Source: Planctomycetota bacterium
GTDB taxonomy: Bacteria; Planctomycetota; OFTM77
Reading direction: 5' to 3'
Length of the DNA: 64,000 bases
NCBI GenBank assembly: GCA_029260795.1
Contig: JAJDCO010000094.1
Coordinates: 161,193-225,192, forward strand
Part shown: in pieces, positions 23,438-39,857 of the stretch
How the letters are laid out: every line of letters begins with the position of its first letter
Position numbering within the stretch: position 1 is the stretch's first letter
The notes under the pieces: model-generated
Seen by the model: only the letters and a program-made list of their open reading frames with translations
What the model was told of the DNA's origin: nothing
Database searches by the model: none
Program-made: the position numbers and the translations under genes

Positions 23438-26266
23438 ATGTCCCTGACCGCCCTCGGATGGTGGCTCGGAATCTGGACCTGCATGGTTGCCCCCGCGGAC
23501 GAAACACCGTCCCTCTACACGGCAATCCCACCGGGAGAGGCCTTGCTCAGCGAGCGAGGTTGCTTGTCTTGCCACGCGGCGACGCCCGAGGTGGAATCTC
23601 GACTCCACCCCAATCCGGCACCGCACCTCGATCAGGTCGGGGCCCGGCTGTCGCCCACCTACATGAGACGATACCTGACCGACCCCCACGCGACTCGACC
23701 CGGCACGCGCATGCCGGACCTGCTCGCCGGGCTCACCGACTCCGAGCGATCCGAGCGCATCGAGGACCTCGTCCACTTCTTGGTTTCGCGCGGCGGTCCG
23801 CTCGCGAATCCGACGACTGCGGTCACCGGCGACGCACTCGCCGCGGGTCGACGCCTGTACCACGAGGTGGGATGCATCGCGTGTCACCAGCCCGTGGAGC
23901 CCGCCGCCGCTCTCGAGCACGTGATGGGGACCCTGTCAGCGGCCCAGCTGGCCGAGATGAGTGAAGAGGACGAAGGGCTGTTCGAGGTGGAGCCGATTCC
24001 CGGAGCCTGGGTTCCGACCGACGTCCGTCTCGACGATCTCGCCTATCGCACGACCGTGCCCGCGCTGGCTCGCTTCCTCGCGAACCCGAATGCGGTCCGG
24101 CCGGGAGCGCGCATGCCGTCGCTCGACCTGACCGACCGCGAAGCCGAGCAGATCGCGGTGTATCTCTTGCGCGATCGCGCCGAGCGCACGCGTACACCCG
24201 GCATCGGCTTCGAGTACTTCGAAGCTCCCTTCGACACGCCGGTCGGATCGTTCGAGGACCTCTCGCCCGTCCGCCGCGGCTCGATGACGCAGATCGATCG
24301 CTTGCCCGATCACCGACCGGATCACTTCGGATTCCGCTTCAGCGCGACGATGGCGATTCTCGAGGCAGGCTCCTATCGCTTCTTCGTCACTTCGGATGAT
24401 GGCTCGCGCCTCTGGATCGACGACGAGCTCGTGGTCGCGAATGACGGCTTCCATCCGATGCAAGAGCGCTCGGGCCAGATCGACCTCGGCGCCGGCGCCT
24501 ATCGATTCGTCGTCGAGTCGTTCGAACGCGACGGCGGTGAAGGGCTACGAGTGGATTGGGAAGGCCCCGGACGGGAGCGTTCGCCGGTCGGCGGCGAGTC
24601 TTTCACTCACGAAGGCCTCGGCTTCCGACTGCCTGAGGAAGAGGTGAGCCTCTCGCCCGACGCGGCTCGCGTCGAGCGAGGCCAGCAGCACTTCGTCGAG
24701 CTGGGCTGTGCGAGCTGCCACCCAGGCGTGGTCGATGCTCCCGCGGCTAGCGCGCCGGCACTGGGGCGACTCGATCCGCGGCGCGGTTGCCTGGCCGCGG
24801 CACCGGCCGCGACCCTCCCGCAGTATGCACTGGATGCGGTCGAGCGCACCGCCCTTCGGGAGGCGATCGGCCAAGTGGCCGGCTGGCAGCAAACCGCCCC
24901 GACCGCCGAAGAGCGGGTCGTGCGCACGCTCGCCCGACATCAATGTCTGGCGTGCCACCGGCGGGACGATCTCGGAAGCCCCCGCGACGACCGGCGCAGC
25001 TACTTCGTGATTCGAGGCGATGCCGAGCTGGGTGACGAGGGACGTATTCCTCCTCACCTCGATCACGTCGGCAACAAGCTCAGGCCCAGCTCGCTCGAGT
25101 CCGTCCTGTTGGAGTCGAGTCGCGTTCGTCCCTACATGGCAGCCCGCATGCCCCAGTACGGCGCCGAGCACGTGGGCGAGCTCATCACCGATCTGATCGC
25201 GGTCGACGCACGCCCCGAGGACGCGATCGAGCCGCCCTTCACCGCGGAGTCGGTGCAGCAGGGACGTCAGCTCGTGGGCACCGACGACGGGCTGGGCTGC
25301 ATCAACTGTCACACGCTCGGGCCCTACGAGTCCTTGGGTGTCCCCGCGGTCGATCTGGCGACGATGACCGAGCGGCTCCGTCCGGGGTGGTTCCGCCAGC
25401 TCTTGCTCGATCCCATGTCGGTGAACATGATCACGCGCATGCCGAAGTTCTGGTTGGAAGACCGGAGCCCGGTCGACATCGCCGAGGGTGCGCCAGGTCC
25501 CCAAATCGACGCCATGTGGTCGTATCTCTCTCTCGGCGATGCGATGCCCTTGCCCAAGGGCCTGGTGGTGCCCGAGGCCGAGTTCGAGCTGGCCGTCCTC
25601 GACGAGCCGGTGCTGTGCGGTGTCTTCATGGCCGGCGTGAGCCCTCGCACCTTGGTGGTCGGCAACCCCGAGAGCTTGCATTACGCGTTCGACCTTCAAG
25701 GGTCGCGATTGGCCAAGGCTTGGCGTGGGCGGTTTTTCAATGCGAAGGGGACTTGGCACGCTCGGGCCGGTGCGCTCGAATCACCGCCGACAGACGACGT
25801 CCTCGAACTCGCCCCCGGGGCACCCTTCGCTCTCTTGCCGAACGACGAGGCTGCTTGGCCGGACCCGGAATCCGATACCGGCTATCGCACCTTGGGACGT
25901 CGCTTCGACGACCGACGCCGGCCGTCCTTCCGCTATCGATTTGAAGGCATGACGATCGAAGAGAAGCCGGTGCCTCGGCGCGAGCGTCGCAATACTTGGC
26001 TTCAGCGCTCGTTTCAGATCGAGAGCGAGAATGACCAGCAGAACCTCTGGTTCCGGGCAGCAGTCGGCCGCTCGATTCAAGCGATCGCACCCGGGGTCTG
26101 GCTCGTCGATGACCGTTCACTGGTCGAGGTGCCGGTAGGAGCGGAAGCGACCGAGCAGTCGCGGCGCCGCACTCGAGGTGAGTGGCAGGAGATCCTGGTT
26201 CCGGTTCGTTTCGTGGAGTCCGAGAGCGGCTGGACGGCCGCATTCGAAGTGGAGCTGACCTGGTGA
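23438..26266 (+). CDS. Multi-heme c-type cytochrome with PA14-like domain (PVC-type heme-binding protein)
   Basis: 942 aa; five CxxCH motifs (CLSCH, CIACH, CASCH, CLACH, CINCH); central PA14-like segment (GSYRFFVTSDDGSRLWIDDELVVANDG...GAYRFVVESFERDGGEGLRVDWEGP); N-terminal signal/TM. Confidence 0.85.
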   Translation: MSLTALGWWLGIWTCMVAPADETPSLYTAIPPGEALLSERGCLSCHAATPEVESRLHPNPAPHLDQVGARLSPTYMRRYLTDPHATRPGTRMPDLLAGLTDSERSERIEDLVHFLVSRGGPLANPTTAVTGDALAAGRRLYHEVGCIACHQPVEPAAALEHVMGTLSAAQLAEMSEEDEGLFEVEPIPGAWVPTDVRLDDLAYRTTVPALARFLANPNAVRPGARMPSLDLTDREAEQIAVYLLRDRAERTRTPGIGFEYFEAPFDTPVGSFEDLSPVRRGSMTQIDRLPDHRPDHFGFRFSATMAILEAGSYRFFVTSDDGSRLWIDDELVVANDGFHPMQERSGQIDLGAGAYRFVVESFERDGGEGLRVDWEGPGRERSPVGGESFTHEGLGFRLPEEEVSLSPDAARVERGQQHFVELGCASCHPGVVDAPAASAPALGRLDPRRGCLAAAPAATLPQYALDAVERTALREAIGQVAGWQQTAPTAEERVVRTLARHQCLACHRRDDLGSPRDDRRSYFVIRGDAELGDEGRIPPHLDHVGNKLRPSSLESVLLESSRVRPYMAARMPQYGAEHVGELITDLIAVDARPEDAIEPPFTAESVQQGRQLVGTDDGLGCINCHTLGPYESLGVPAVDLATMTERLRPGWFRQLLLDPMSVNMITRMPKFWLEDRSPVDIAEGAPGPQIDAMWSYLSLGDAMPLPKGLVVPEAEFELAVLDEPVLCGVFMAGVSPRTLVVGNPESLHYAFDLQGSRLAKAWRGRFFNAKGTWHARAGALESPPTDDVLELAPGAPFALLPNDEAAWPDPESDTGYRTLGRRFDDRRRPSFRYRFEGMTIEEKPVPRRERRNTWLQRSFQIESENDQQNLWFRAAVGRSIQAIAPGVWLVDDRSLVEVPVGAEATEQSRRRTRGEWQEILVPVRFVESESGWTAAFEVELTW

Positions 26267-26274
26267 ACCGAACG

Positions 26275-27753
26275 ATGCTGCTCATCTCGTTGATGGTGGG
26301 AATCGGCGCCGTTCAGGCGCTGGCTCAGGCTCCCGCCGGCGACGACGATCCGAACGTCGAAGCGCTGTCGTACCGCATCGTCTCAATGCCCCAGCCCGAG
26401 GGGATCTCGCTCGAGGTCAGCGGTCTGGCCTGGCTGCCCGACGAACGACTGATGATGGCGACGCGGCGCGGCGAGATCTTCATCGCACAGAACCCGCTGG
26501 CAGCTTCGGGTGAGACGCTCGAGCTGGTGCGCTTCGCCCACGGCCTTCAGGAGCCTTTGGGTCTGCTGGTGCACGACGGATGGATCTACTGCGTGCAGCG
26601 CGGTGAGCTGTCACGCCTTCGAGACGTCGATGGCGACGATCGCGTCGACGAGATCGAGACCGTCTGCGACACCTGGCGTGTGAGCGGGAACTACCACGAG
26701 TACAACTTCGGTCCGCGCATCGACGCCGAGGGAAACTTCTGGATCACGACCAACAAGCCGTTCGGTGGCGAGCCCTTCGGACGAGTCGATTGGCGTGGTT
26801 GGGCGCTTCGCATCACCCCCGACGGGGAGATGATCCCGACCGCCTGCGGTCTCCGATCTCCCGCCGGCATCGAGATCAGCCCTTGGGGAGATGCCTTCTA
26901 CACCGACAATCAGGGCGAGTGGTGCGGCGCGAGCAAGCTCAGCCACCTCGAGCCCGGCGACTTCCACGGGCACCCCTGGGGCCTGCCGTCGGCTCGCCGT
27001 GAGGAGTGGGCCTACGACTATCCCGGAGATCCTCCCAATGGCAAGCTGATGCCGGACGTGGTCCAGGACATTCCGACCTTCAAGCTCCCAGCGGTCTGGT
27101 TCCCGTACGACAAGATGGGCAAGTCTCCGGCCGGGATGACTTGGGATCAATCGGGCGGCCGCTTCGGCCCCTTCTCCGGACAGCTCTTCGTCGGGGATCA
27201 GCACCACGCCTCGGTCATGCGTGTCTTCCTCGAGCGCGTCAACGGCCACTGGCAGGGAGCCTGCTTCCCCTTCCGCTCGGGCTTCCAGTCCGGTGCGCTC
27301 CGCCTCGCCTGGGGGCCGGACGCGCAGCTCTTCGTCGGCATGACGAATCGGGGATGGGGCTCACGCGGGAATCAAACCGACGGCTTGCAGCGTCTCGAGT
27401 GGACAGGACACGTGCCCTTCGAAGTGCGTGAGATGCAGGCGCGGCCGCACGGCTTCCGGTTGGTGTTCACGGTTCCTGTCGACCTCGAGCGCGCCCAAGA
27501 CCCCGCCTCCTATCGTATGGAGAGCTACACCTACCGATTGCATGCCCAATACGGCAGCCCGGAGGTCGAGCAGAAGACACTCTCGATCGAATCGATCACG
27601 GTCTCCGAGGACGGGTTGGCCGCCGACCTGAAGATCGCCGGCCTACGACGCGGCTACGTGCATGAGCTCCATCTTCCGGGCATTCGAGCCGAAGACGATC
27701 GACCGCTGGCGCATGCCGTGGCTTATTACACTCTCATCGAGCAACCTCGCTGA
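26275..27753 (+). CDS. Beta-propeller protein of the sorbosone/glucose dehydrogenase-like (DUF7133-type) family, secreted
   Basis: Start set at ATG 26275 (MLLISLMVGIGAVQALA signal peptide); a GTG at 26263 overlapping the cytochrome stop is an alternative. Tight coupling to the upstream cytochrome gene. Confidence 0.78.
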   Translation: MLLISLMVGIGAVQALAQAPAGDDDPNVEALSYRIVSMPQPEGISLEVSGLAWLPDERLMMATRRGEIFIAQNPLAASGETLELVRFAHGLQEPLGLLVHDGWIYCVQRGELSRLRDVDGDDRVDEIETVCDTWRVSGNYHEYNFGPRIDAEGNFWITTNKPFGGEPFGRVDWRGWALRITPDGEMIPTACGLRSPAGIEISPWGDAFYTDNQGEWCGASKLSHLEPGDFHGHPWGLPSARREEWAYDYPGDPPNGKLMPDVVQDIPTFKLPAVWFPYDKMGKSPAGMTWDQSGGRFGPFSGQLFVGDQHHASVMRVFLERVNGHWQGACFPFRSGFQSGALRLAWGPDAQLFVGMTNRGWGSRGNQTDGLQRLEWTGHVPFEVREMQARPHGFRLVFTVPVDLERAQDPASYRMESYTYRLHAQYGSPEVEQKTLSIESITVSEDGLAADLKIAGLRRGYVHELHLPGIRAEDDRPLAHAVAYYTLIEQPR

Positions 27754-27870: not shown

Positions 27871-29166
27871 ATGTTGCGTCTCAGCCTCGCCCTCTCTTGC
27901 TCACTGCTCTGCGTGTCGCCGGCCTTGGCTCAGGAAGGCAGTGATTGGCCTCAGTTCCAGGGGCCCGATCGCTCGGGCGCTTCCACCGAGACCCAGCTGG
28001 CTTGGAGCTGGGGCGAGAGAGGCCCGAAGGTGATGTGGTCGACTGAGCTCGGCCCCGGCTACGGCGGAGCGGCGGTCCTGGGTGACGAGGTCTTCGTGCT
28101 CGATCGGATCGCGGAAGAGCAAGACATCCTGCGATGCTTCGACTTGGCGACCGGCAGCGAGAAGTGGAACTTCGCCTACGCCGCTCCGGGGCGACTGGAC
28201 TACCCGGGCTCGCGCGGAGTGCCGGCCGTGACCGCGGATCACGTGTACACGATCGGCGGATTCGGCCAGGTGCTGTGCGTCGACCGCAAGACGCATGAGC
28301 CGGCTTGGAGAGTCGACCTGGCGGACCAATACGAGGCTCACATCCCGCAATGGGGCTGGGCGCAGTCGCCCTTGGTCACCGAGAAGTCGGTCATCGTGGC
28401 GCCCCTGGCCCGAGACGCGGGGCTCGCCGCCTTGAACCTCCGGACGGGCAAGGAAGTCTGGCACTCCCCGGGACTGGGCACGACGCACTCCTCTCCGGCA
28501 TTGCTACACATCCAAGGGAAGGACCAGGTCCTCTTGGTCACGACCAAGGGTCGCACCGGTCTGATCACGAGCGTGGATCCGAAGACGGGGCAGATCCTGT
28601 GGCAGCACGACCAGTACTTCTGCCGTTTCCCCATCACGGCACCCATTCGAATCGACGACGAGCGCGTGTTCGTAACGGGCGGCTACGGAGCCGGCTCACT
28701 CATGCTGAAGGTCGCACGGGGCTCGAGCAAGAGCTGGTCGGTAACCGAGCTCTATCGGCTGGAGAAGGGCTCTCAGGTTCACCTCCCGATGCTGATCGAC
28801 GATCATCTCTATCTCATGGCGAACGAGAACGGCACGGACAGTCCTCGGCGGCGCCAGAATGGCGGCCTGATGTGTGTCGATCTGAAGGGCAACGTGAAAT
28901 GGCGCACCGGCGCCGAGCCCTACTTCGGTCGCGGAAACTCGATCGTGGTCGGTGGCCAGCTGATTACGCAGGACGGCCTCAGCGGCACGCTGCGAGTCAT
29001 CGAGCCGTCGCCTTCCCAGTACCGTGCCATTGCCGAGGCGAATGTGTTCGGCACCGAGACGCAGCGCGACGAGCACATGTGGGCGCCGATGGCGCTGAGC
29101 CGAGGTCGTCTGCTGATGCGGAGCCAAGATCGGATGCTCTGCCTGGACGTCCGCGCCAGCCAGTGA
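27871..29166 (+). CDS. PQQ-like beta-propeller repeat protein (BamB/PQQ_2-like), secreted (paralog 1)
   Basis: 431 aa; signal peptide; N-terminal WPQFQGPDRSG motif shared by the six paralogs; repeated propeller blades (G..YA.D..TG...W). Confidence 0.82.
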   Translation: MLRLSLALSCSLLCVSPALAQEGSDWPQFQGPDRSGASTETQLAWSWGERGPKVMWSTELGPGYGGAAVLGDEVFVLDRIAEEQDILRCFDLATGSEKWNFAYAAPGRLDYPGSRGVPAVTADHVYTIGGFGQVLCVDRKTHEPAWRVDLADQYEAHIPQWGWAQSPLVTEKSVIVAPLARDAGLAALNLRTGKEVWHSPGLGTTHSSPALLHIQGKDQVLLVTTKGRTGLITSVDPKTGQILWQHDQYFCRFPITAPIRIDDERVFVTGGYGAGSLMLKVARGSSKSWSVTELYRLEKGSQVHLPMLIDDHLYLMANENGTDSPRRRQNGGLMCVDLKGNVKWRTGAEPYFGRGNSIVVGGQLITQDGLSGTLRVIEPSPSQYRAIAEANVFGTETQRDEHMWAPMALSRGRLLMRSQDRMLCLDVRASQ

Positions 29167-29272: not shown

Positions 29273-29641
29273 TCAATCCGAGACGAGGGTCGTGCTCGTT
29301 CCATCCAGTCGGATGGAGAAGTGCGGCCGACCTCCGGTCTCGCGATTCAAATAGGCGACGAGGTCCATCCAACGATCGAGCTCGGACCCGGAGCTAGTCT
29401 CCAGATCGAAGGCCTCTGATCGTGTCGTCGCGCGCTTCGGAGCCGACAGGGTGCTCGTCGATTGCCGACCGGCTTGACTCGCCTTCTTCTTTCGTTGCGC
29501 GCGCTTTGCAGGGCTCGTTCCGAACACCTCACCCAGGTTGGCGGGCGGAATGCCCTTTCCGAACTTCTTCTTCACCTGGCTCTGAAGCGCACCCACGTTG
29601 CGCGCTTTGCCCTGTTGGAAGATCTTCTTACCGTAGGCCAT
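29273..29641 (-). CDS. Hypothetical small basic protein
   Basis: Start set at ATG 29641 (MAYGKKIFQQGKARNVG...); Lys-rich N-terminus and C-terminal ELDRWMDLVAYLNRETGGRPHFSIRLDG; no family recognised, so coding status is uncertain. Confidence 0.35.
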   Translation of the reverse strand: MAYGKKIFQQGKARNVGALQSQVKKKFGKGIPPANLGEVFGTSPAKRAQRKKKASQAGRQSTSTLSAPKRATTRSEAFDLETSSGSELDRWMDLVAYLNRETGGRPHFSIRLDGTSTTLVSD

Positions 29642-29809
29642 GCGTTCTTGCAGAGTCGCTTCAGCCAAAATTCCACCCTCTCGCAATCGGGAATGTCTCA
29701 ACTTCATTCCCCCTTCGTCGGCCCTTATAACAGGCCACTCCGAGAAGGTCTCTCACGTATTTGAGCGGAATTGCGAAACGCGAGCATCTCGTCCCACAAT
29801 CCACGAGCT

Positions 29810-31084
29810 TCATTGCCAGGAGTATGCCGCCAGGCCGGTGAGCTCTCGAATGAAGATCTCGCGGCCGGACATTGCCAAATGAGCCCAGGTCTCCTGCTCC
29901 GAGACTCCGGCCTGATCCAGAACCTGGTAGGACTCGGGATTCGCCCGCAGCAAGTACAGCCGACCCGAGTCGGCCAACGCCAGGATACGGTCGCCCTGAC
30001 GTACCAGAGACCAGTAGGAGTCGCCAGTCGGAGGCGAGGTCCAACACGTCTCGCCGGTCGGAAGGTGAATGCAGGTGAATCGATTCGCACGCGTGAACAG
30101 ATAGGCATGCTCGTCGATGATCACCGGCGAGGTCATGTAGCCTTGGGTGGAGTTCTGCCAACCGGCCTCGATGTTCCAGCCGGCCTCGAGTCGACTCACG
30201 TTCAGCAGACGAGCCCTCGCGCCGTATGCGGCCGTGAAGATCCCTTCGTCAAAGACGATCGGCGTCAGGATGTTCATGCCGCGAAACGATGGCGTTTGCA
30301 TTCGCCACAGCACCGCGCCCTCCGACTCGCTCACGCCCTGGAGGTGAGTCCGCGACTGCACAACGAGCTGAGGGACACCACCCAGCGTGACACGGACTGG
30401 AGAGGCGAAGGCGCTGCCGTTCATGCCGCCCCCATCTCCCAGCGAGCGCCAGATCTCCTTGCCGGTCTCCTTGTTCAGCTTGACGAAGGCTCCGCCCGCT
30501 TGCACGTAGACCGCGTCGCCCACGACCAGCGGAGAGCAAACGAAGCCAAAGGCCGGGAGGTCGGTGCCTTGATCTTCGGAAAAGTCGACTCGCCAAACCA
30601 CTTCACCCGTCTTCGCGTCGAGGCACACGAGCAGGTCGCACATGCCGGCCACGTAGAGGCGTTGCCCGTCGAACGCAGGCGTCGAGCGCACCCAGGATCC
30701 GTTGCGAGCCGCGAAGAAGGGCACCTTCATGGCCCCCTCCCACTCAATCTTCCACAGCTCGTGCCCCGTTCGACGGTCCAGGGCGCGGACGACCTCGTGC
30801 GTCTCGTCTCGCGTCTCGACCGAGAAGACTCGGTCCGCGGTCACGATCGGCCCCGCGTAGCTCTCCCCGAGCTCGACTCGCCATTGCAGCTTCAGTCGCG
30901 CGTCTCCAAAGCCCTCCGGCCAGGTCGGCCCCGTGAACGTCCCGTCTCGCACCGGCCCTCGCCACTGGTTCCAATCCACGGGAGCGTCGGTCGTCAAAGT
31001 CTCGGCCGTCTTTTGGACGTCGTCATCCGAGAGACCGAATCCGAGTAGCGACAGGAGTCCAGAAGTCAGTGCCAGCGTGATCAT
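29810..31084 (-). CDS. PQQ-like beta-propeller repeat protein (paralog 2)
   Basis: Start set at ATG 31084 (MITLALTSGLLSLLGFG signal); WNQWRGPVRDG motif; propeller repeats. Confidence 0.8.
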   Translation of the reverse strand: MITLALTSGLLSLLGFGLSDDDVQKTAETLTTDAPVDWNQWRGPVRDGTFTGPTWPEGFGDARLKLQWRVELGESYAGPIVTADRVFSVETRDETHEVVRALDRRTGHELWKIEWEGAMKVPFFAARNGSWVRSTPAFDGQRLYVAGMCDLLVCLDAKTGEVVWRVDFSEDQGTDLPAFGFVCSPLVVGDAVYVQAGGAFVKLNKETGKEIWRSLGDGGGMNGSAFASPVRVTLGGVPQLVVQSRTHLQGVSESEGAVLWRMQTPSFRGMNILTPIVFDEGIFTAAYGARARLLNVSRLEAGWNIEAGWQNSTQGYMTSPVIIDEHAYLFTRANRFTCIHLPTGETCWTSPPTGDSYWSLVRQGDRILALADSGRLYLLRANPESYQVLDQAGVSEQETWAHLAMSGREIFIRELTGLAAYSWQ

Positions 31085-31189
31085 GAACCGCTCCAGGGAG
31101 ATGTCGACGACTGAGAGCACCCCGAGATGGGGGACGCGCTGACGTTCGACGGACAGCTCGGGGCAGATTCAGGCAGCGGCGAGGCTCCC

Positions 31190-31909
31190 TCAGTTCGAGC
31201 GCGCCCCGATCGGAATCAGGTAGAGCGGGAGCTCGCGAGGAGACCCCCCCAGCGCCGCACGCACGAGATCGGAATCGATCCCTCCGACGGGCACGGCCCC
31301 CAGATCGAGCGCAGTCGCTTGCAGCAACAGGTTCTGGGCCGCGTGCCCGGCCTCGAGCTGCACGTAACGGGGCGCGATCTCGGCGTCGTACTCCGCGGCC
31401 ATGCGGTCGACGACGCCACACAGCACGAAGACCGCGGGCGCTTGGGCGAGGACCTTCTGATCGTAGGCGGCCGCAGGCAGCGCCGAACGCAGGTCTCCTC
31501 GGCGGTACAAGATCAGGCGATGGTCCTGCGGCTCGTAATGATAAAGGCCTTCCGGCAGCACGATCCACAGCTCGAGTGGGTAAGCGGGTCCAGCCGACGG
31601 CGCCGTGCGATGCCCATCGGCGTCCGTCGTCCCCTGTGCAGCCCAGGCGAGCTGCGAGATCTCTTCACGGCTCAGAGAGCGACCTCCGAACTCACGAATC
31701 GAGCGCCGTTGAGCCAAGACCTCTTCGAGCGACCGCTCCCCTTTCAATCGGGGTGCGGGAAGCTCGATCGTCTCCAGAGCCTCGCCTCGCTCGATCGGTC
31801 CCGAGCCGGTCTCGTCGCCACAGCTCGCCAGCCCGGCGAGCCCAATCAGGAGCACGAGACGACACAGGCCCGTCACTCGGATCACTGAGACTCCCCGGCT
31901 TGGAGGCAC
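31190..31909 (-). CDS. SagB-type dehydrogenase / nitroreductase-family protein (lipoprotein-like signal)
   Basis: 239 aa; nitroreductase-like N-terminal motif RRSIREF...LSREEISQLAWAAQG and SagB-like PSAGPAYP; N-terminal LAGLASCG lipobox-like signal. Confidence 0.78.
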   Translation of the reverse strand: MPPSRGVSVIRVTGLCRLVLLIGLAGLASCGDETGSGPIERGEALETIELPAPRLKGERSLEEVLAQRRSIREFGGRSLSREEISQLAWAAQGTTDADGHRTAPSAGPAYPLELWIVLPEGLYHYEPQDHRLILYRRGDLRSALPAAAYDQKVLAQAPAVFVLCGVVDRMAAEYDAEIAPRYVQLEAGHAAQNLLLQATALDLGAVPVGGIDSDLVRAALGGSPRELPLYLIPIGARSN

Positions 31910-33147
31910 AGCAAGGCTCCGCGCGTCCGGACGAAGAGACGTCCCTGGGACCAGGCGGGAGTCGCCTGTGTGGGCTCACCGAGCTCGAGTCGCTGCAGCA
32001 GGCCAAACTCGGCTGCCGCACGAAGCACGAGCAGCTCGCCCGACGTGGTTCCGATGACGAAACGCTCGCCGATGCGAATCGGGGAGCCGAAGGTCTCGCC
32101 CCCCTCGACGCGCTCGCGCCAGTGGACCTCACCGGTCGAGCGGTCCAAGCAAGACGCCACTCCCGAGTCGCTCCAAAGAAACAGAGCGTCTCCGAGTCCG
32201 ATCGGGCTCGGAACGTAGGGGAGCGCCTGCTGGGCGCGAAAGAGGATCTCGGGCGCTTCCTTCGCCGGGTCGAGTGGGAGACGAACCGTGACGCTCTCCT
32301 TGCCCCCTCCACCGGAGCCTGCAGCCTGGATGAGTGTCCTCCCGACCAAACCAGATGATCCCACGCAGCGTTGCTCGAACAGGTCCTCCAAGGACCACAA
32401 GACCCGCCCGGTGCTCGGCTCGATCCCCGTCAAGCCGTGAGCCGTGCTCGCCGTGACGATCTGGATCGGTCCCCCATCGGGCTCGAAGGCCACGGGCGTC
32501 GCGTACGAGGCGCGAACGCTTCGACGGGGAATCCGCCATCGATCACGACCGGTCGCGGGGTCGAGACCGACGAGAAAGCCGTCTTCGCCCTCGTGCTCCT
32601 TCGCGACGATGAGGACGCCTTGAACGAGCAAGGGCGAAGCGCCACTACCGTGCTGGGCCTGGAAGGCACCCAGGTCTCGACGCCAAGCGGGCTCGCCGTC
32701 CAGCTTCAGAGCCAGCAGCTCGAGCTTCTCACCACTCGTCCAAGAGACATAGAGACGCTCACCGTCCACGGCCGGTGTCGAGGCCGCGAAGCTGTTGAGC
32801 CGGTGTTGCGAGTGGGACTGAAACTCGTACGAGCGCGACCACTGGACGGTGCCCGTTCGCACGTCGAGACAAGTGACGCGGCGTTTTCCGGTGTCGGGCA
32901 TCTCCTCGGTGAGGAAGAGCCGGTCGCCGCGGACCACGGGCGACGAGTGCCCTTGTCCTCCGGTCTTCACGCGCCACACGATCTCGAGCGGTCCCGCGTC
33001 GGCGGGCCATCCGGCATCGACCTGTCCGCGGGCGCCAGGCCCTCGGAAACCGGGCCAGTCCTGACTCGGCCAGCCGAGGCTTCCAAAGAGCAACGAGAAC
33101 ACCAGCAGGCTCATGAGCCACCGGACGAGCCGAACGCCGTGGCTCAT
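31882..33147 (-). CDS. PQQ-like beta-propeller repeat protein (paralog 3)
   Basis: Start set at ATG 33147 (MSHGVRLVRWLMSLLVFSLLFGSLG signal); WPGFRGPGARG motif. Confidence 0.8.
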   Translation of the reverse strand: MSHGVRLVRWLMSLLVFSLLFGSLGWPSQDWPGFRGPGARGQVDAGWPADAGPLEIVWRVKTGGQGHSSPVVRGDRLFLTEEMPDTGKRRVTCLDVRTGTVQWSRSYEFQSHSQHRLNSFAASTPAVDGERLYVSWTSGEKLELLALKLDGEPAWRRDLGAFQAQHGSGASPLLVQGVLIVAKEHEGEDGFLVGLDPATGRDRWRIPRRSVRASYATPVAFEPDGGPIQIVTASTAHGLTGIEPSTGRVLWSLEDLFEQRCVGSSGLVGRTLIQAAGSGGGGKESVTVRLPLDPAKEAPEILFRAQQALPYVPSPIGLGDALFLWSDSGVASCLDRSTGEVHWRERVEGGETFGSPIRIGERFVIGTTSGELLVLRAAAEFGLLQRLELGEPTQATPAWSQGRLFVRTRGALLCLQAGESQ

Positions 33148-33181
33148 GGACCATCTCCTCCTCGAGGGTGAGTCTTCTCGT

Positions 33182-34510
33182 TCAGGCTCCGCTCGCCTCA
33201 CCTTCGCCGCCGCCACTTCGGTGGATTCGCGGGCTCGCCTGACTCGGTGCCAGCGGGCGACCGTGCGAGAGCGGCTCGGGCAGAGTAGCAAAGGCCCTCA
33301 TGTCCTCGAACATCTGACCGAGGCTTTCTTGATAGACATTGCCGATCAGGCAATCCGTCAACGCCCGCCCGTGACTCGGGTGCGCCTTGAGGAAGTCACC
33401 AAAGTTGAAGCTCGAATCATAGAAGGCATAGACCAGTCGGCGCATGGCCTCGATGCCTTCGCAGAACCGATCGCCGTACTCGGTGAAGCGAGCGGCGCTG
33501 CAGTCTCCGTCCTTCAGGGCTTGCTCGACGGCATCCGCAGCCATGACCCCGGACTGCAAGGCCAGGAAGACACCGGAAGAGAAGACCGGGTCCAGGAAGG
33601 CGAAGGCATCGCCGGCGAGCAACAGGCCGTTGGCCGCGCAATGTCGCGATCGGTAGGAGTAGTCACCGGTCACCCGGAAGCTGCCGGCCTGTCGGCCTCC
33701 TCGAACGTGATCCCGAACCCACGGTTGAATGGCGAGCTCGCGCCGAAAGATCTCCTCGGGGTCGCGCGTGCCGCGGTACAGATACTCGCGGTCGGCGACG
33801 ACTCCGACGCTCACGCGATCATTCGCCATCGGGATGTACCAGAACCAGCCCTTCTCGGGCAGGTATGCGACCGTGGTCGCACCGGCATCGACACCGGTGT
33901 CGCGCTGAGCTCCGTCGAAGTAGGTCCAGATCGCGATCTTCTTGAGCACCTGATCCGGGATGCGCCACGAGTTCCGGAGCTGGGAGAAGGTATCCCGACC
34001 GCTGGCATCGATGGTGATGGGCGCATAGACCTCGTAGGTGCCGAGGTCCTTGGAATCGACCTCGAGGCCGGCCACCGAGTCTCCGTCCCAGATCAGCTGC
34101 CGGGCGGAGGTTTCGAACCGAGCCTCGGCTCCTTTCTCCACGGCATTGTCGACCATCAGAGTGTCGAAGTCGCTGCGCACGACCTGCCAGGTCCGCGAGC
34201 TGGGGTGATCGTCATGGTCGACGAAGTAGAAGGGTTTCGAGAGCTTGCCGCCAGTGTCGACGAACTGCACGCTCAGCTTCGGAAAGGCGAAGGCCGCCTG
34301 GTTCATCTTCTCCACCAGGCCCAGCCGATCGAGCGCGAACCAACAGTACGGGATCAAGGACTCCCCGACTCGGTAGCGAGGAAAGCTCTCCCGCTCGAGA
34401 ATGAGGACGGATCGACCGTACTCGGCCAAGACGGCGGCTGTCGCAGATCCTGCCGGTCCGGCGCCAATGACGATGGCGTCGAACTCGACCGGATGAGTCT
34501 TCGAGTTCAT
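33182..34510 (-). CDS. Flavin-dependent halogenase-like FAD enzyme (tryptophan-halogenase family)
   Basis: 442 aa; GxGxxG (IVIGAGPAGSATA), GESLIP region, Lys-containing AAFAFPKLSVQF segment, WxWxIP motif (GWFWYIP), C-terminal FLDPVFSSG motif. Confidence 0.8.
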   Translation of the reverse strand: MNSKTHPVEFDAIVIGAGPAGSATAAVLAEYGRSVLILERESFPRYRVGESLIPYCWFALDRLGLVEKMNQAAFAFPKLSVQFVDTGGKLSKPFYFVDHDDHPSSRTWQVVRSDFDTLMVDNAVEKGAEARFETSARQLIWDGDSVAGLEVDSKDLGTYEVYAPITIDASGRDTFSQLRNSWRIPDQVLKKIAIWTYFDGAQRDTGVDAGATTVAYLPEKGWFWYIPMANDRVSVGVVADREYLYRGTRDPEEIFRRELAIQPWVRDHVRGGRQAGSFRVTGDYSYRSRHCAANGLLLAGDAFAFLDPVFSSGVFLALQSGVMAADAVEQALKDGDCSAARFTEYGDRFCEGIEAMRRLVYAFYDSSFNFGDFLKAHPSHGRALTDCLIGNVYQESLGQMFEDMRAFATLPEPLSHGRPLAPSQASPRIHRSGGGEGEASGA

Positions 34511-34578: not shown

Positions 34579-36405
34579 TTATCCGTCTCTTCGTTCACCC
34601 ACGGCAATGAGATGATGCTGAGTCCGAAAATACAAAACACCTTCCGAGAGGGCGGGCGACGCCATCGTCGGATCCTTCAATGAGTTGACCTCGAGAATCT
34701 CGAACTCCGGTCCCAGCTTCACGACGTAAACCTCCCCGTCCTCACTCGCCTGGTACAGCTTCCCGTCTCCAGAAACGCCCGAAGCCGTGAAGCCGTAGCC
34801 GCCCATCTGGGTGTTGGCGAGTCGCTCGCGATAGATCTCGTCGCCCGTTTTGGCGTCGAAGCACGACAGGACACCGAGATCGTTGCAGCAGTAGAGAAGG
34901 TCGCTCGCGACCAACGGCGTCTGCATGTAGTTGCCGCGCCGCATGTGGAACCAGGCGAGGTCCTTACTGGTCGGCAGCGTCGAGAGCTTACCGCTGGCAT
35001 CGAGCGGAATCGCATAGATCGGCGCGTGGCGTCCATGCGCATTCGTGATGTAGGCGAGGTCATTCGCGACGATCGGTGTCGGGACCGGGATGTCCCCGCC
35101 CCCTTCCAACCACCAGAGCGCCTCTCCCGTCTCGAGGTCATATCCGCCGATGTGCTTCCAGCCATTGCAGATCACCTGCGACCGCTGCTTCCCGACGTGC
35201 ACGGTCGGCGTTCCCCAGGTGGGCACTTCCTCACGCTCGGTGCGCCAGAGGTCTTCGCCCGTCTCGAGCGACAAGGCCCCCACCCACGACTGCGCTTGAA
35301 TGTCGACCTGAAGGATGATCTTGTCCTCGTGGATGACCGGTGAGCTCGCGAAGCCCCACTGAGCCTGCGGCATCGAGAAGTAGCCCGAGTCCAGGAGACC
35401 GAAGTCCTCGCGCTTCCACAGCAGCTTGCCATCGCGGTCGTAGCAGTAGAGCCCTTCCGAGCCGAAGAACGCGACCACACGATCGCCGTTCGTCGCGACC
35501 GACGAGGCGGCGTGGCTGCCCTTGGGATGCCGCTTCACCTGGGGCATCCCGCCCCACGCCGTCTGCGACCACAGCAGATTGCCCGTGTGCTTGTCGTAGC
35601 AGAGCACACGAAACGTCTGAGCGCCTTCGTCTTCCACCGGCGCGATCGAGCCGTACAACCCGACCTTGAGCTCGGCCTCACCTTCGTTCGCACCGACCGC
35701 CGTCGTCAGGTAGAGACGTTCGCCCCAGATCACGGGGCTCGAGTGCGCCAAGCCCGGAACGTCGATCTTGAAGACGACGTTCTCGCCGCTTTCGACGTTC
35801 CACTTCGTCGGCAGCGGATACCCGTCGGAGTGGCCTCGAGCCTGCTCGCCGCGGAAGGCCGGCCAGTTGCCGTCGCCCTTATCTGTGGGAGCCGGACCGT
35901 CACTCGCCTCGGCCCGCTTCTCGAGGCGCCCATACATCTGGCCACCATGGTCGCCCGCATCCCAGATGCCCGCGTATTGTCCGCGGAAGAACACGACGCG
36001 CGCGGAGAACGTGCCCATGCCCGGCACCGGCACGTCCGTGAGCGTGATGACGGGCGTATCTCCTGCCCACTTCACCTTGACGGGTGCCGGCCAGACCGAG
36101 TCCGTCTTGCCGTACTGGATCCGGGCCGTGATCAGCCAGAGGTCCCCGATCATCTTGCGCGCACCCTGAATCGAGTAGCGCTCCTCTTGCGGGGCCGTCT
36201 TTTGACCCGTGACGGTGAAATGTCCGACCAGGTCGACTCCGGTCAGCATCTGGGCGAACTCGTCCTCGAGACGCTCACGGTCGTTCGGCTTGGCCGTCTC
36301 GGGGGGCGGAGCCGACTCGTCGGTTTCGGTTTGAGCGATCAACGGCAACGTGCCGACACCCAAGACCAGCAGAACGACAGCCCGGGCGAGCCAGTGGCGG
36401 ATCAT
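34579..36405 (-). CDS. PQQ-like beta-propeller repeat protein with ~170 aa N-terminal extension (paralog 4)
   Basis: 608 aa; signal peptide; extra N-terminal domain, then WPAFRGEQARG and propeller repeats. Confidence 0.8.
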   Translation of the reverse strand: MIRHWLARAVVLLVLGVGTLPLIAQTETDESAPPPETAKPNDRERLEDEFAQMLTGVDLVGHFTVTGQKTAPQEERYSIQGARKMIGDLWLITARIQYGKTDSVWPAPVKVKWAGDTPVITLTDVPVPGMGTFSARVVFFRGQYAGIWDAGDHGGQMYGRLEKRAEASDGPAPTDKGDGNWPAFRGEQARGHSDGYPLPTKWNVESGENVVFKIDVPGLAHSSPVIWGERLYLTTAVGANEGEAELKVGLYGSIAPVEDEGAQTFRVLCYDKHTGNLLWSQTAWGGMPQVKRHPKGSHAASSVATNGDRVVAFFGSEGLYCYDRDGKLLWKREDFGLLDSGYFSMPQAQWGFASSPVIHEDKIILQVDIQAQSWVGALSLETGEDLWRTEREEVPTWGTPTVHVGKQRSQVICNGWKHIGGYDLETGEALWWLEGGGDIPVPTPIVANDLAYITNAHGRHAPIYAIPLDASGKLSTLPTSKDLAWFHMRRGNYMQTPLVASDLLYCCNDLGVLSCFDAKTGDEIYRERLANTQMGGYGFTASGVSGDGKLYQASEDGEVYVVKLGPEFEILEVNSLKDPTMASPALSEGVLYFRTQHHLIAVGERRDG

Positions 36406-36515: not shown

Positions 36516-39500
36516 CTATTCGCTGCGCAGAGCCGCGAGAAGGGGGCCTCGGAGGGCGAGCCAGGTCGCGGCCACGACCCAAGCGACTCCCGAGATGGCG
36601 ACGCCGATCACCAGGATGCCGGCCGCACCCCATGGGCTCTCGGCGCCCGGATCCGCCAGCGCCGGCCAGACCGCCACCGCTGCCGCCAGGATTCCGCTGA
36701 GCAACCCCAAGGCGAGCAAGGCGCCGTGCTCGCTCCACACGAGCCAGCGCACGGCCGAGCGCCGATATCCGACGGCCCGAACCAGCGCGAGCTCTGAGCG
36801 ACGCTCGAGCACGTTGCGAAGCACCACCGTCCCCAAGCCCGCCGCGCCCAACAACAATCCAAGCCCCCCCAGCATCTGAAAGATGACCAAGTAGGTGTTC
36901 TGCACCGAGTTGAAGGCGGCCAGCCGTTCCGCGGTGTCGGTCACCTCCAGGCCCATGTCCGCAAGCCCGCGGGTCAGCTCCCGCTCCACCTCGTCGGTTC
37001 GCGCCGGTGCCACGTCGAACAGAAACCAGCGATAGCCGCTCTCCGACGGGAACAGCTCCTCAAAGTGATCGCCGCCGATGACCAGATTGCCTTGGAGGAT
37101 CGAGTTGGCGACCGTCCCGACGATGCGAACCTGAAAGGGCCGACCCCGCTCATCCAGGTAGTCGATGGTGCCCCCGACCGACTTGTGGAGGGCCCACTGC
37201 ACGCTGGCGGCATCACCGATGGCCGGGATCGCGCCATCGGCCCGCTGCTCGAGCAACGTCCACGGGCTCCTGCCTTCCGCCAGGCCGAGATGGTCCGTGA
37301 ATCGAAACGCCTCGCGCTCTGCGAGCCGGGCCGGGTTCACGCCGACCAGACGCGGCTGCTGCGTTTGGTTGAGATTCAAGCAGCTCGCCTCGTCACCGTC
37401 CCGCACCCGGAACGACACGACGCTTCCAGGTGCCAAGAGGTCCTTGGGCAAAGCGTAGGCGTCGATCGCGTCCTGCGAGTCGAGGTCGTGGAGCACGCCG
37501 ATCGTCGCGCGCGCCTGCAGCGTGAAGCCCCCCGTGCCGGAGTCGCGCCGCGTCGGATCCTCGGGCTCTCCCAGACGGTTCGCTCCGACCGCGACGACCA
37601 GAAACGTCCCCGATGCTAGTAGCGAGATGGTGGCCAAGCTCCGCCCCGGGCGCCGCGTGCTGTTGCGCAGACCCAAACGACCGACGGTCTCCTTCTCCGG
37701 GAGCCCTTCGGAGCTCCAACCGGCCAGAAGCAGTCGGCTACCGAACAGGCCGGCCATGAGGAGCAGAGCCCCGACGCCGAAGAACGCCCCAGCTGCCGCC
37801 GTGCCTCGGCCCGGTCCGACCGCCACCGCGATGGCGATCGCCGCCACGACGCAGACGAGCGTCAGTATCACCAATGCCTTCCGTCGGCTCGCCGACAGCA
37901 CTCCCCCGCTCTCGCCAACGCCGCCTCGACGACCGAGCAGCTCTCTCGCCGAGCTCTTGGCCTGACGGCGCAAGGTCCCGGCGAGGGCCGCGAGTGCGGC
38001 CAGGATCGAGATCCCAGCGCCGAGGACGAGCGTCATCGGAGAGATCGCGACCGAGATCGCCGCGGAGGCGACGGCTTCTTTCCACACGCTCGCCAACGCG
38101 CCGAGCACGAGGCGGGTGTACCCGAGCGCGCCGAGAACACCGAGAGAGGCTCCGAGCACCGCGAGCACCAGGCCTTCACCGAGGAGGAGGCGCCGCACCT
38201 GCCGCGGTGTCCAGCCGACGGCGAGGAGAAGCCCGACCTGCGAAGCCCGCTGCTCGACGCCGAAGACGAAGAGCAACGCCGTCAGCAGGAAGGCCGCGAT
38301 CAGGAGGAAGGAGCTCAAACCGAGGAACAGGCCCCCAAAGTCCGTCGTCGCACGTCCCGAGGCGAGCGCCTGGCCGCGCAGATCCTGAAAGAAGAGCCCC
38401 AGGGCGGCCGGCCGGAGTGCGGACACGAGGTCCTGCTCGAGCGCGGTCCGATCCGTCTCGGAGAAGCGAACGGCCGTCAGGGCTCCGAAGCGATTGCCCC
38501 ACATCCCTTGCGCCGTCTCGAGCGTGATGAAGGCCTTGGGCGTGCCGTGGTGATCGTCCCAGTAGGCCTCGTCTTCGTCGCGGATGCGCTCGAGGTCGAC
38601 CGGGATACCCGGCTCCCAGTCGCGGCAGTCCTCGGTATCGGCCAGCCCGGGAAAACCGGGCATCAGCGAAGGATCGCCCGCGAAGCCCTCGAGCGGTGTC
38701 ACTCGCCCGACGGTGAAGACGTGCTCCTTCTCGACCAGTCGGCGATCGCGACCAATGGCGAAGTAGCGGATGCTCAGTCGGTCTTGTGCTTTGGCGCCGA
38801 GATCCGTTGCGAGCCAGCGGCCGAGGATCGTCCCATCGTTTGCCAGACCAGTTCCATAGAGGACGTGCCAGTCGGGAAAGTCTTCGGGCGCTCCGGCGAG
38901 CAGGCCAGCGCCGGCGACCATCGAGTACGGAGTCGCGCGATCACCGATCCGGAGCTCGTTGACGAAGTAGGTGAGAATGCCGAGCGCCGAGCGCGAGCCG
39001 CTTCGTACAGCCTCCTCCACCGGTGGATCGAGGAAGATGCGCTCACTGCGGAGCTCGAGCAAGCCGCTCTCGTGATCATGGAGGCTCAGCTCACCGTCCT
39101 CGAGCTTCCAATGCTGGGCGAGCGCTTCGTCGAGAGCTTCCGACGCGGGCGCCGAGTCTTCGGAAGCACCGGCGACGAGCAGCAAGTTGGCGCGCCCCGC
39201 GCGCTCGACGGTGCGCTGCAGCCAGTCGAGATCGACGAAGGCATTGAAGGGCGGAATCTGGTCGGCCTCGAGCGCGAACCGTCCGAATGTTTCGTCGGTC
39301 ACGATGGCGACGACCTCGACCCGCAACGCGGTCGCGACGTCGTCGCTGGTTGCGAGCGCCATGTCCCGCGGGAGTCCACTCGGCTTTTCGACTCGGAGCA
39401 AGATCGTGTCACCGACGGCGACCTCGAGCTGGCTCGCGAGCCGCTCGCTCACCAGCACTTGCCGAGGCCCAGGGAGCGGGCCGTTCCAGGCTGCCGCTCC

Positions 39501-39857
39501 GAGCGCCGGAAAGCGTGCATCGATGCCGGTGACGCGCACGTCGTTCGCGCGCCGTTCCCCTCCCGGCACCGATCCGACTCCGCTGAGCCGCAAGGCGGGA
39601 ACCACGCGGAGGTCTCGGAAGCTGGCCGCGAGCTCGTCGGCCAAGGCGGCTCGAAAAAAGCGATCGTGCGACACGAGCACACGATCGGTGCGACCAATCC
39701 GCTGCCGCGCCTGCGATTGCAAGCTCGCCTGCACGGAGTCGCCGACCACCAGGGCACCCACCAAGACGGCGGTTCCGATGGCGGTTCCCAGCAGGACGCC
39801 CAGATGGCTTCGCCAATAGTAGAGCGCGCTGCGGAGAACGAGCCGAAGCCGAGTCAT
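36516..39857 (-). CDS. ABC transporter permease, FtsX/MacB-like, large (two FtsX-type membrane domains with large extracytoplasmic domains)
   Basis: 1113 aa; N-terminal TM, large periplasmic regions, C-terminal 4-TM FtsX-like bundle; 4-nt overlap with the upstream ABC ATPase. Confidence 0.83.
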   Translation of the reverse strand: MTRLRLVLRSALYYWRSHLGVLLGTAIGTAVLVGALVVGDSVQASLQSQARQRIGRTDRVLVSHDRFFRAALADELAASFRDLRVVPALRLSGVGSVPGGERRANDVRVTGIDARFPALGAAAWNGPLPGPRQVLVSERLASQLEVAVGDTILLRVEKPSGLPRDMALATSDDVATALRVEVVAIVTDETFGRFALEADQIPPFNAFVDLDWLQRTVERAGRANLLLVAGASEDSAPASEALDEALAQHWKLEDGELSLHDHESGLLELRSERIFLDPPVEEAVRSGSRSALGILTYFVNELRIGDRATPYSMVAGAGLLAGAPEDFPDWHVLYGTGLANDGTILGRWLATDLGAKAQDRLSIRYFAIGRDRRLVEKEHVFTVGRVTPLEGFAGDPSLMPGFPGLADTEDCRDWEPGIPVDLERIRDEDEAYWDDHHGTPKAFITLETAQGMWGNRFGALTAVRFSETDRTALEQDLVSALRPAALGLFFQDLRGQALASGRATTDFGGLFLGLSSFLLIAAFLLTALLFVFGVEQRASQVGLLLAVGWTPRQVRRLLLGEGLVLAVLGASLGVLGALGYTRLVLGALASVWKEAVASAAISVAISPMTLVLGAGISILAALAALAGTLRRQAKSSARELLGRRGGVGESGGVLSASRRKALVILTLVCVVAAIAIAVAVGPGRGTAAAGAFFGVGALLLMAGLFGSRLLLAGWSSEGLPEKETVGRLGLRNSTRRPGRSLATISLLASGTFLVVAVGANRLGEPEDPTRRDSGTGGFTLQARATIGVLHDLDSQDAIDAYALPKDLLAPGSVVSFRVRDGDEASCLNLNQTQQPRLVGVNPARLAEREAFRFTDHLGLAEGRSPWTLLEQRADGAIPAIGDAASVQWALHKSVGGTIDYLDERGRPFQVRIVGTVANSILQGNLVIGGDHFEELFPSESGYRWFLFDVAPARTDEVERELTRGLADMGLEVTDTAERLAAFNSVQNTYLVIFQMLGGLGLLLGAAGLGTVVLRNVLERRSELALVRAVGYRRSAVRWLVWSEHGALLALGLLSGILAAAVAVWPALADPGAESPWGAAGILVIGVAISGVAWVVAATWLALRGPLLAALRSE

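Follow-up and report, generated by a model that had tools for sequence, protein, structure and literature searches.

Described systems and the locus examined

Flavin-dependent halogenases (FDHs) are usually regarded as sporadic tailoring enzymes of secondary metabolism, and the known enzymes of variant B (phenol/pyrrole type), such as FasV, CndH, PltA, ChlB4, Bmp2, Mpy16 and CmlS, belong to polyketide synthase (PKS), nonribosomal peptide synthetase (NRPS) or carrier-protein pathways of individual producers. The gene described here, 33182-34510 on the minus strand of a 64,000-nt stretch of contig JAJDCO010000094.1 (GCA_029260795.1, Planctomycetota bacterium, 65% G+C; "the window" below means this whole stretch), is predicted to encode an FDH of this variant, and it forms part of an operon that is conserved across phyla. 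Halophenols derived from 4-hydroxybenzoate are products of the Bmp5/Bmp6 and ambigol Ab6-Ab10 systems, and the mycobacterial pathway to p-hydroxybenzoic acid derivatives and phenolic glycolipids (p-HBAD/PGL) involves the chorismate lyase Rv2949c, FadD22 and glycosyltransferases. As a lead, the operon appears to follow a similar logic, which runs from a chorismate lyase via 4-hydroxybenzoate and its activation to halogenation or glycosylation and to export. Unlike them, it contains no acyl carrier protein (ACP), cytochrome P450 or PKS, and its radical-SAM (rSAM) enzyme, EhpF/EhpG-like reductase, MacB-type exporter and secreted propellers have no counterpart there.

The closest described system is that of the Planctomycetales strain 10988, from which 3,5-dibromo-p-anisic acid was isolated by Panter et al. 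(bioRxiv 10.1101/723874; later ACS Chem Biol 2019). For the dibromo-4-hydroxybenzoate core of this compound the authors proposed a chorismate-lyase-like protein, BaaA, and an FDH encoded by the adjacent gene on the same strand, BaaB (bioRxiv 10.1101/723874). According to the supplement of that study, the best modelling template for BaaA was 2NWI, followed by E. coli chorismate lyase, and BaaB was nearest to CmlS and PltA. The study covered these two genes and makes no mention of an rSAM enzyme or of the remaining operon.

The halogenase

The 442-aa product of ORF 33182-34510(-), which has no signal peptide, contains the strings VIGAGPAGS, GESLIP, AAFAFPKLSVQF, GWFWYIP and FLDPVFSSG, as had been reported in an earlier note on this DNA that was made from the sequence alone and that took the protein for an FDH with intact signature motifs. 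This assignment was borne out. In an alignment of the window protein with 20 database orthologues of 57-78% identity (21 sequences), invariant residues are G16, G18 and G21 of the GxGxxG motif (G16-A-G18-P-A-G21), E50 in GESLIP, the candidate catalytic lysine K78, residues G221, W222, F223, W224 and P227 in and next to the WxWxIP motif (W222-F-W224-Y-I-P227), which in halogenases keeps the substrate away from the flavin, and the C-terminal Fx.Px.Sx.G motif (F305-LDPVFSSG313). The catalytic lysines of the reference halogenases are K79 in PrnA and K76 in CndH; in HMMER alignments K78 pairs with a lysine in FasV and in Bmp2 and is one residue off K76 of CndH. Of the Lys/Glu pair that the earlier note had wished to see confirmed, the lysine thus stands, whereas the Glu346-type catalytic glutamate of tryptophan halogenases was not located in the protein. 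The glutamate that is retained is E50 of GESLIP, the Glu of the GESL motif common to variant-B enzymes such as CndH.

The matches to halogenase models are far beyond chance. The Pfam family Trp_halogenase (PF04820) is matched with 92.3 bits (cutoff 21, E 4e-26), and sequence matches among the structures of the PDB are FasV (8zop, E 6e-56), CndH (9e-51), Bmp2 and the Cytophaga protein 3nix, and further ChlB4, PltA, Mpy16 and CmlS. The best NCBIfam match is the CmlS equivalog NF033113, with 195 bits at a cutoff of 900, so that the protein is not a CmlS equivalog. Neither is it an enzyme of the PrnA/RebH type, as tryptophan halogenases align with it only over the N-terminal 70-80 residues that hold the FAD motif (E 1e-4 to 1e-3) and are about 100 aa longer.

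An AlphaFold model built on the ortholog alignment (pLDDT 88, pTM 0.89) was compared with the PDB by Foldseek, and the top 33 matches are all halogenase chains, with FasV in first place (TM 0.82/0.88, 32% identity), followed by CndH, PltA, ChlB4, Bmp2, Mpy16, 3nix, RadH, CmlS, PltM and CtcP. The known variant-B enzymes share the fold with TM values of 0.74-0.89 at 27-32% identity, and they likewise carry GxGxxG, the GESL glutamate, the catalytic lysine, WxWxIP and Fx.Px.Sx.G. Flavin monooxygenases, PqsL and geranylgeranyl reductases appear from rank 34 onward with 17-18% identity, the geranylgeranyl reductases at rank 49 or lower, and the geranylgeranyl reductase family TIGR02032 scores 117 bits, below its cutoff of 158.8. 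A grouping with geranylgeranyl reductases, which the earlier note had named as the outcome that would speak against a halogenase, was therefore not found. Judged by every sequence and fold criterion tested, the 442-aa protein is a genuine two-component variant-B FDH, and it is counted here as a member of that family.

A conserved halogenase operon

A search with the FDH protein gave upwards of 7000 homologues. The 120 best (57-78% identity) belong to Planctomycetota, Phycisphaerae and Bryobacterales, and most of them bear the annotation "tryptophan 7-halogenase" or "NAD(P)/FAD-dependent oxidoreductase". Among GTDB representative genomes, one per species, orthologous loci were confirmed in at least 590 species, with identities of 49-61%. 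The best 80 of these loci, which were examined, show 49-64% identity to the FDH over the best-matching segment and belong to Planctomycetota, Verrucomicrobiota, Acidobacteriota (Bryobacterales, Terriglobia, Acanthopleuribacter), Omnitrophota and Lentisphaerales. The family is carried by hundreds of species from soil, fresh water and the sea, and it differs from the known variant-B FDHs in its identity of about 50-60% over at least four phyla, in its coupling to a gene for a HemN-like rSAM enzyme and in never being found with a carrier protein.

The neighbourhoods of four database orthologues contain recurring genes for the HemN-like rSAM enzyme, a GT4 glycosyltransferase, a thioesterase of the 4-hydroxybenzoyl-CoA thioesterase (4HBT) type, an unannotated protein of about 185 aa, a PaaK-like ligase, an ABC ATPase together with an FtsX permease of 1110 aa, a PQQ_2 propeller, an aldehyde dehydrogenase and an iron-containing alcohol dehydrogenase (Fe-ADH). 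Synteny was then quantified by tblastn of window proteins against 88 loci, with counts taken from the 48 full-length loci (at least 19 kb). The rSAM gene lies within 10 kb of the FDH gene in 39 of these and the gene for the PaaK-like ligase occurs in 26; the conserved propeller and a protein of 186-202 aa are found in 21 loci each, the 4HBT thioesterase and the ABC ATPase in 20 each, and the GT4 enzyme in 17.

De novo clustering of ORFs resulted in a canonical order of 15 genes, P-S-E-L-D-P-R-C-F-G-T-M-K-A-X, in which P denotes the propeller, S a sodium:solute symporter family (SSF) importer, E an EhpF-like adenylase, L an EhpG-like aldehyde dehydrogenase, D the Fe-ADH, R the HemN-like rSAM enzyme, C a chorismate-lyase-fold protein, F the FDH, G the GT4 enzyme, T the 4HBT thioesterase, M a small membrane protein, K the PaaK-like aryl-acid ligase, A the ABC ATPase and X the FtsX permease. 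This order is unchanged in the Planctomycetota loci L005 and L048 and in the Verrucomicrobiota loci L014, L020, L025 and L082; the Acidobacteriota loci retain only the core R-(C)-F-K. Among 80 non-redundant loci, 69 are informative in that they include at least two upstream genes, and in 47 of these R precedes F either directly (23 loci) or as R-C-F (24 loci). P and R are adjacent in 23 loci, and C lies directly upstream of the FDH gene in 29 of the 80. No other partner of the FDH family is as constant as the rSAM enzyme. An apparent rSAM-FDH fusion of 845 aa (L063:1160-3697) was rejected as an artefact, its junction being a run of masked N that appears as X in the translation.

The earlier note, which was confined to positions 31190-34510, had seen no partner for the halogenase. 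This could not be upheld: the HemN-like rSAM enzyme, GT4 enzyme, 4HBT thioesterase, ABC/FtsX exporter, EhpF/EhpG-like reductase, Fe-ADH, SSF importer and secreted propeller are encoded at 36.5-51.1 kb, so that the missing partner lies within the window, upstream of those coordinates. A literature search, which included a genome-content paper on the Planctomycetes-Verrucomicrobia-Chlamydiae (PVC) group (PMC3542564), found no paper that describes an rSAM-FDH operon. The conserved halogenase operon is real, widespread and apparently undescribed.

The chemistry of the partners and a proposed pathway

EhpF, the truncated adenylating enzyme of the phenazine pathway to D-alanylgriseoluteic acid, was reportedly proposed in the paper on its structure to reduce, together with EhpG, an aromatic carboxylate to the aldehyde. 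The alignment of the operon protein E with EhpF extends along its entire length (3l2k, E 7e-42), and the window's order of E and then L mirrors that of ehpF and then ehpG, which are adjacent genes of the AMP-binding and aldehyde-dehydrogenase types in phenazine clusters (PMC11278526). The difference is that phenazine genes accompany the latter pair, and that none are present in the window operon. The ligase K, encoded elsewhere in the family, matches PaaK (209 bits), BagE/FevW and FlxY, a ligase of flexirubin synthesis, and the fold of T is that of 4-hydroxybenzoyl-CoA thioesterase. For R the matches are HemN (1olt, E 1e-44) and NocN, an rSAM methyltransferase of class C (E 7e-30), and G resembles the small-molecule and exopolysaccharide GT4 enzymes BshA, MshA and EpsE.

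The C protein has no Pfam or NCBIfam match, and a profile search of the PDB gave only a weak one (2nwi, E 0.16). Its AlphaFold model (pLDDT 92), when compared by Foldseek, matches the DUF98 structure 2nwi (E 3e-8, TM 0.61/0.75) and also UTRA domains and the E. coli chorismate lyase UbiC (E 2e-4), and many members of this protein family are annotated by JGI as chorismate-pyruvate lyase. A database protein of 324 aa, P0357, is a natural fusion of the chorismate-lyase fold with the 4HBT thioesterase, and this ties C and T functionally. Together, the evidence on E, L, K, T, C and the fusion points to a 4-hydroxybenzoate-type aromatic-acid pathway without a carrier protein. For C and F of the canonical operon, the templates of the BaaA and BaaB models (2NWI/UbiC and CmlS/PltA) were obtained independently, with the same gene adjacency and again in a planctomycete, so that the C-F pair very probably is the BaaA-BaaB pair, matched by fold templates and not by sequence. 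The window differs from this pair, as it contains no C-type gene and its FDH gene is relocated.

The likeliest role of the FDH, as suggested by its operon partners and by the resemblance of the C-F pair to BaaA and BaaB, would be the halogenation of a 4-hydroxybenzoate-type aromatic. Such an acid would be made from chorismate or imported, and F would halogenate its ring ortho to the phenol by means of HOX that is formed at the flavin and guided by Lys78; a C1 modification of the aromatic by R is possible. The aromatic would be carried as a CoA thioester through the action of the ligase K and the thioesterase T, its carboxylate would be converted to the aldehyde by E and L, and the aldehyde may then be converted to the alcohol by the Fe-ADH D. 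Finally, the product would be glycosylated by G and exported by M, A and X to the periplasm, the compartment of the co-encoded propellers. Taken as a whole, we lean towards the explanation that the FDH is the tailoring halogenase of a conserved aromatic-acid operon without PKS or NRPS, the product of which is glycosylated and exported. Should this product prove to be a halogenated aromatic, the phyla that carry the operon, which are abundant and poorly cultured, could form a widespread natural source of organohalogens, and the pathway would be a well-defined target for heterologous expression.

Some points weigh against this explanation. The halogenating activity of the FDH family is a prediction from sequence and fold, and a cross-phylum identity of about 50-60% is unusually high for a tailoring enzyme of secondary metabolism and may indicate a more central role, for which the model does not account. 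The chorismate-lyase/UTRA fold serves in ligand binding as well. Leaving aside the possible C1 modification, the model gives no role for the rSAM enzyme R, and it gives none for the secreted propellers. When chorismate-lyase-fold and PaaK-like proteins were searched against the 64-kb window by tblastn, no match was obtained, and with C and K absent from the window the model leaves the source of the substrate in this organism unaccounted for. The ORFs scanned in the window also include no flavin reductase gene. The comparison with BaaA and BaaB is one of fold templates and gene order, not of sequence, and the proposal for these two proteins itself came from genome mining alone, without a genetic or biochemical test (bioRxiv 10.1101/723874).

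A more far-reaching idea, which we regard as improbable, is that the product of the operon is a hydroxybenzyl alcohol or aldehyde glycoside, halogenated and possibly methylated by the rSAM enzyme, which serves the secreted propellers in the periplasm as ligand, redox shuttle or cofactor. If it were true, the exported halogenated glycoside would be the bacterial equivalent of the fungal redox cycle of chlorinated anisyl alcohol and aldehyde, enzymatic halogenation would have a housekeeping use in Planctomycetota, Verrucomicrobiota and Acidobacteriota, and the propellers would resemble "empty quinoproteins".

The operon as found in the window

Between about 51.1 kb and 29.8 kb the minus strand carries a tight run of genes, and eleven conserved operon members occupy 36516-51062(-), immediately upstream of the FDH region. 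The first large gene encodes the sodium:solute symporter S (49413-51062) and is followed by those for the EhpF-like truncated ANL adenylating enzyme E (48340-49416, 358 aa) and for the aldehyde-dehydrogenase-family protein L (46892-48409), which is called EhpG-like from its place beside the EhpF-like gene. Then come the Fe-ADH D (45703-47160, with the true start probably about 100 codons into the ORF) and the secreted beta-propeller P (44431-45693), which has a signal peptide and matches PF13570 (202 bits) and PQQ_2, and the stop codon of which overlaps the start of the HemN-like (class C type) rSAM gene R (43100-44434). The remaining conserved members are the GT4 glycosyltransferase G (41732-43078), the 4HBT-fold acyl/aryl-CoA thioesterase T (41179-41670), the polytopic membrane protein M (40598-41152, 184 aa), which is without a family match and has a median identity of 60% across loci, the LolD/MacB-type ABC ATPase A (39854-40582) and the duplicated FtsX/MacB-type ABC permease X (36516-39857, 1113 aa). 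A small membrane ORF of 91 aa (51017-51292, minus strand) overlaps the start side of the symporter gene and has the position that a DUF3311 gene takes before the SSF gene in L005.

After X follow, all on the minus strand, a PQQ_2 propeller of 608 aa with a signal peptide (34579-36405), the FDH gene, a secreted PQQ_2/BamB-like propeller (31882-33147, likely starting at M49 of the 469-aa ORF 31882-33291, 34 nt past the FDH stop), the SagB-like gene and, as last gene of the run, a PQQ_2/BamB-like propeller of 436 aa (29810-31120). The propellers that the earlier note had seen on either side of the FDH and SagB-like genes (34579-36405, 31882-33291 and 29810-31120) are indeed PQQ_2/BamB-like. In the locus of the closest relative, L001 (Planctomycetota metagenome-assembled genome GCA_040219065.1, FDH 78% identical), the order is R-G-T-M-A-X-P-F-nitroreductase, and the propeller 5' of the FDH gene corresponds to the 608-aa protein. 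From these two gene orders it follows that F has been displaced from R/C to the 3' end of the operon in this lineage, in which the operon has also gained genes for exported proteins, namely propellers and the SagB-like lipoprotein. At the end of the run there is also a Lys/Arg-rich ORF of 144 aa (29273-29707, minus strand) that matches no family and lacks a counterpart in all 88 related loci.

Stop and start codons overlap between the propeller and the SagB-like gene (GTGA) and in the P-R, E-S and A-X pairs, and such overlapping or close stops and starts are consistent with co-transcription. A scan for promoters and terminators from 28.9 to 45 kb found nothing above background that would divide the gene run. 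The intergenic gaps in the 29.8-36.5 kb region measure 34-110 nt and therefore leave no room for a precursor-peptide gene. The 47 ORFs scanned across the whole window, all with Pfam and 18 also with NCBIfam, include no YcaO, NRPS, PKS or carrier protein, so that the earlier note was right in seeing none of the first three and no obvious precursor peptide.

The window encodes six divergent PQQ_2/BamB-like propeller paralogues within 27 kb, four of them in the minus-strand run (29810-31120, 31882-33147, 34579-36405 and 44431-45693) and two on the plus strand (27871-29166 and 52760-54640). Signal peptides are present in all four that were checked, which are those other than the 436-aa and 626-aa copies, and only the propeller at 44431-45693 is a conserved operon member. 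Elsewhere, propellers recur beside the halogenase in unrelated arrangements, as in L059 and L075. Against the models for PQQ-dependent dehydrogenases, TIGR03075 and TIGR03074, the window propellers reach at most 90 bits (cutoffs 480 and 833), which does not qualify them as such enzymes, and they match only general PQQ_2/BamB-like repeat models. Residues 1-185 of the 608-aa propeller comprise an N-terminal domain of about 180 aa without a Pfam or NCBIfam match, which is kept in L001 (598 aa).

The SagB-like gene

The gene at 31190-31885(-) encodes a stand-alone SagB/ThcOx-type nitroreductase of 231 aa, with a likely GTG start at 31885 (ORF 31190-31909) that overlaps the stop of the upstream propeller gene. 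As the earlier note had observed, the protein carries RRSIREF and PSAGPAYP and is of the SagB/nitroreductase type; it matches the Pfam family Nitroreductase (E 5e-28) and is a borderline pass for the NCBIfam SagB model TIGR03605 (83.3 at a cutoff of 78.4). It shares the nitroreductase fold with the SagB azoline dehydrogenases of thiazole/oxazole-modified microcin (TOMM) systems. Unlike these, it is a stand-alone protein with a core of about 190 aa, it appears to be an exported lipoprotein, and it is accompanied by neither YcaO nor a precursor. Its N-terminus has a signal peptide with the lipobox LAGLAS-C, which does not fit the cytoplasmic action with other maturases that is expected of a SagB protein. 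As judged by eye, without a predictor, a lipobox signal is found in nine of 13 sampled homologues, including the window protein and the L001 orthologue, and two more have plain signal peptides.

Among solved structures it is nearest to BF3017, an uncharacterised Bacteroides protein (3hoi, E 1e-24), and to 8cqs, and not to TOMM dehydrogenases. A search returned more than 5000 stand-alone homologues, and the 120 listed range from 194 to 295 aa in length. Four loci of such homologues on long contigs have no common neighbour and contain no YcaO, FDH or propeller, and a SagB-like gene is near the FDH gene in only one of the 48 full-length FDH loci. The lack of a conserved neighbourhood and the export signals thus identify the protein as a generic exported SagB/ThcOx-type flavoprotein by sequence, encoded in a lineage-specific operon tail with extra propellers, and not as a catalytic partner of the FDH. 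As it is extracytoplasmic, it is unlikely to be a co-maturase or flavin reductase of the cytoplasmic FDH. On the opposite strand, an ORF of 253 aa (31127-31888, plus) with a GC3 of 0.76 is conserved in three loci and was rejected as a shadow ORF of high-GC DNA; the SagB frame was taken as the real one because of its Pfam match and its numerous homologues.

All features quoted in the earlier note were found, and its observation is therefore confirmed; its interpretation is partly supported. The coupling of the FDH to the SagB-type gene that it had proposed did not hold, since the linkage is confined to one of 48 loci, the family is a generic stand-alone one and a lipoprotein signal stands against a cytoplasmic FDH. 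A generic nitroreductase without conserved linkage is the very result that the earlier note had named as speaking against its proposal. The SagB neighbour is incidental.

Alternative explanations

Among the alternatives to a tailoring halogenase, a halogenase-like protein that does not halogenate and instead acts as hydroxylase or reductase on an aromatic intermediate, in the manner of UbiH, PqsL or the geranylgeranyl reductases, appears unlikely, and it still deserves more attention than the others. The sub-threshold NCBIfam matches to QhpG, LodB and the geranylgeranyl reductase family could be read in this sense, as could the cross-phylum conservation, which is atypical for halogenases, and the fact that halide dependence is only predicted. 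Yet WxWxIP, Fx.Px.Sx.G and the catalytic lysine are invariant, and no monooxygenase or geranylgeranyl reductase precedes the 33 halogenase chains in the fold search. The SSF importer, the two adenylating enzymes, the 4HBT thioesterase and the aldehyde and alcohol dehydrogenases would also suit a catabolic operon that imports, CoA-activates and degrades an aromatic or halo-aromatic acid, comparable to the 4-chlorobenzoate pathway, with the FDH-like enzyme acting on the ring. We consider this quite improbable, as the operon conserves a GT4 enzyme, a MacB/FtsX-type exporter, a HemN-like rSAM enzyme and a chorismate-lyase-fold protein and includes no genes for ring cleavage or beta-oxidation. QhpG, QhpD and QhpF are involved in the maturation of quinohemoprotein amine dehydrogenase, and a similar maturation of a protein cofactor, in which the FDH-like flavoenzyme and the rSAM enzyme modify a propeller residue before export (compare also LodB/GoxB), might be suspected from sub-threshold matches to QhpG, LodB and GoxB, from the co-encoded rSAM enzyme, flavoenzyme, ABC exporter and secreted propeller and from the overlap of the propeller and rSAM genes. 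The matches, however, reach only 122, 93 and 77 bits at cutoffs of 240, 400 and 400, so that the protein does not belong to these families of protein-Trp/Lys maturases, no QhpG-type structure is among the top 50 fold matches, the propellers bear ordinary signal peptides, and the ligase, thioesterase, GT4 enzyme and carboxylate reductase suggest a small molecule, all of which makes this explanation very unlikely.

Two further alternatives assign a function to the SagB-like protein. Nitroreductase-fold flavin reductases exist, the SagB-like gene lies directly 3' of the FDH gene in L001, and no other reductase gene was found in the window, so that the protein might be thought to feed FADH2 to the halogenase. 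This is highly improbable in view of the lipoprotein signals of the window protein and its L001 orthologue, which place them outside the cytoplasm, and of the 47 among 48 orthologous loci in which such a gene is not near the FDH gene. Least credible of all is a joint action of the FDH and the SagB-type dehydrogenase on a peptide or azoline substrate that is encoded outside the window, as in the pathways to peptides that are made on the ribosome and modified after translation (RiPPs). The narrow pass of TIGR03605 and the position of both genes in one same-strand run, and side by side in L001, speak for it. Against it stand the single linked locus, the four homologue loci without common neighbours or YcaO, the export signals set against a cytoplasmic FDH, the 64-kb window in which neither YcaO nor a precursor was found, and the conserved FDH neighbours, which are small-molecule enzymes. 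We think that this RiPP-type explanation is already largely refuted.

Other features of the window

Divergent from the operon run, a pair of genes at 23438-27753(+) encodes a multi-haem cytochrome c of 942 aa with a PA14 domain and then a protein of 523 aa with weak matches to DUF7133, a PVC-type haem-binding N-terminal domain and GSDH. The pair resembles the periplasmic redox modules that are typical of PVC bacteria, and it is near FDH orthologues in none of the 48 loci. At 10007-12387(-), a chorismate-binding enzyme of the anthranilate/aminodeoxychorismate synthase component I type is followed by a class IV aminotransferase; these resemble a PabB/PabC pair and would be another chorismate-using step, 20 kb from the operon. 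A XerC/D-like tyrosine recombinase, a sulfatase of 803 aa and a DNA N6/N4 methyltransferase lie together at 12421-17196. The rest of the window is housekeeping, with genes for exonuclease VII, YmdB, RNase Y, a cystathionine-type PLP enzyme, glutamate dehydrogenase, a GH95 fucosidase and a peroxiredoxin.

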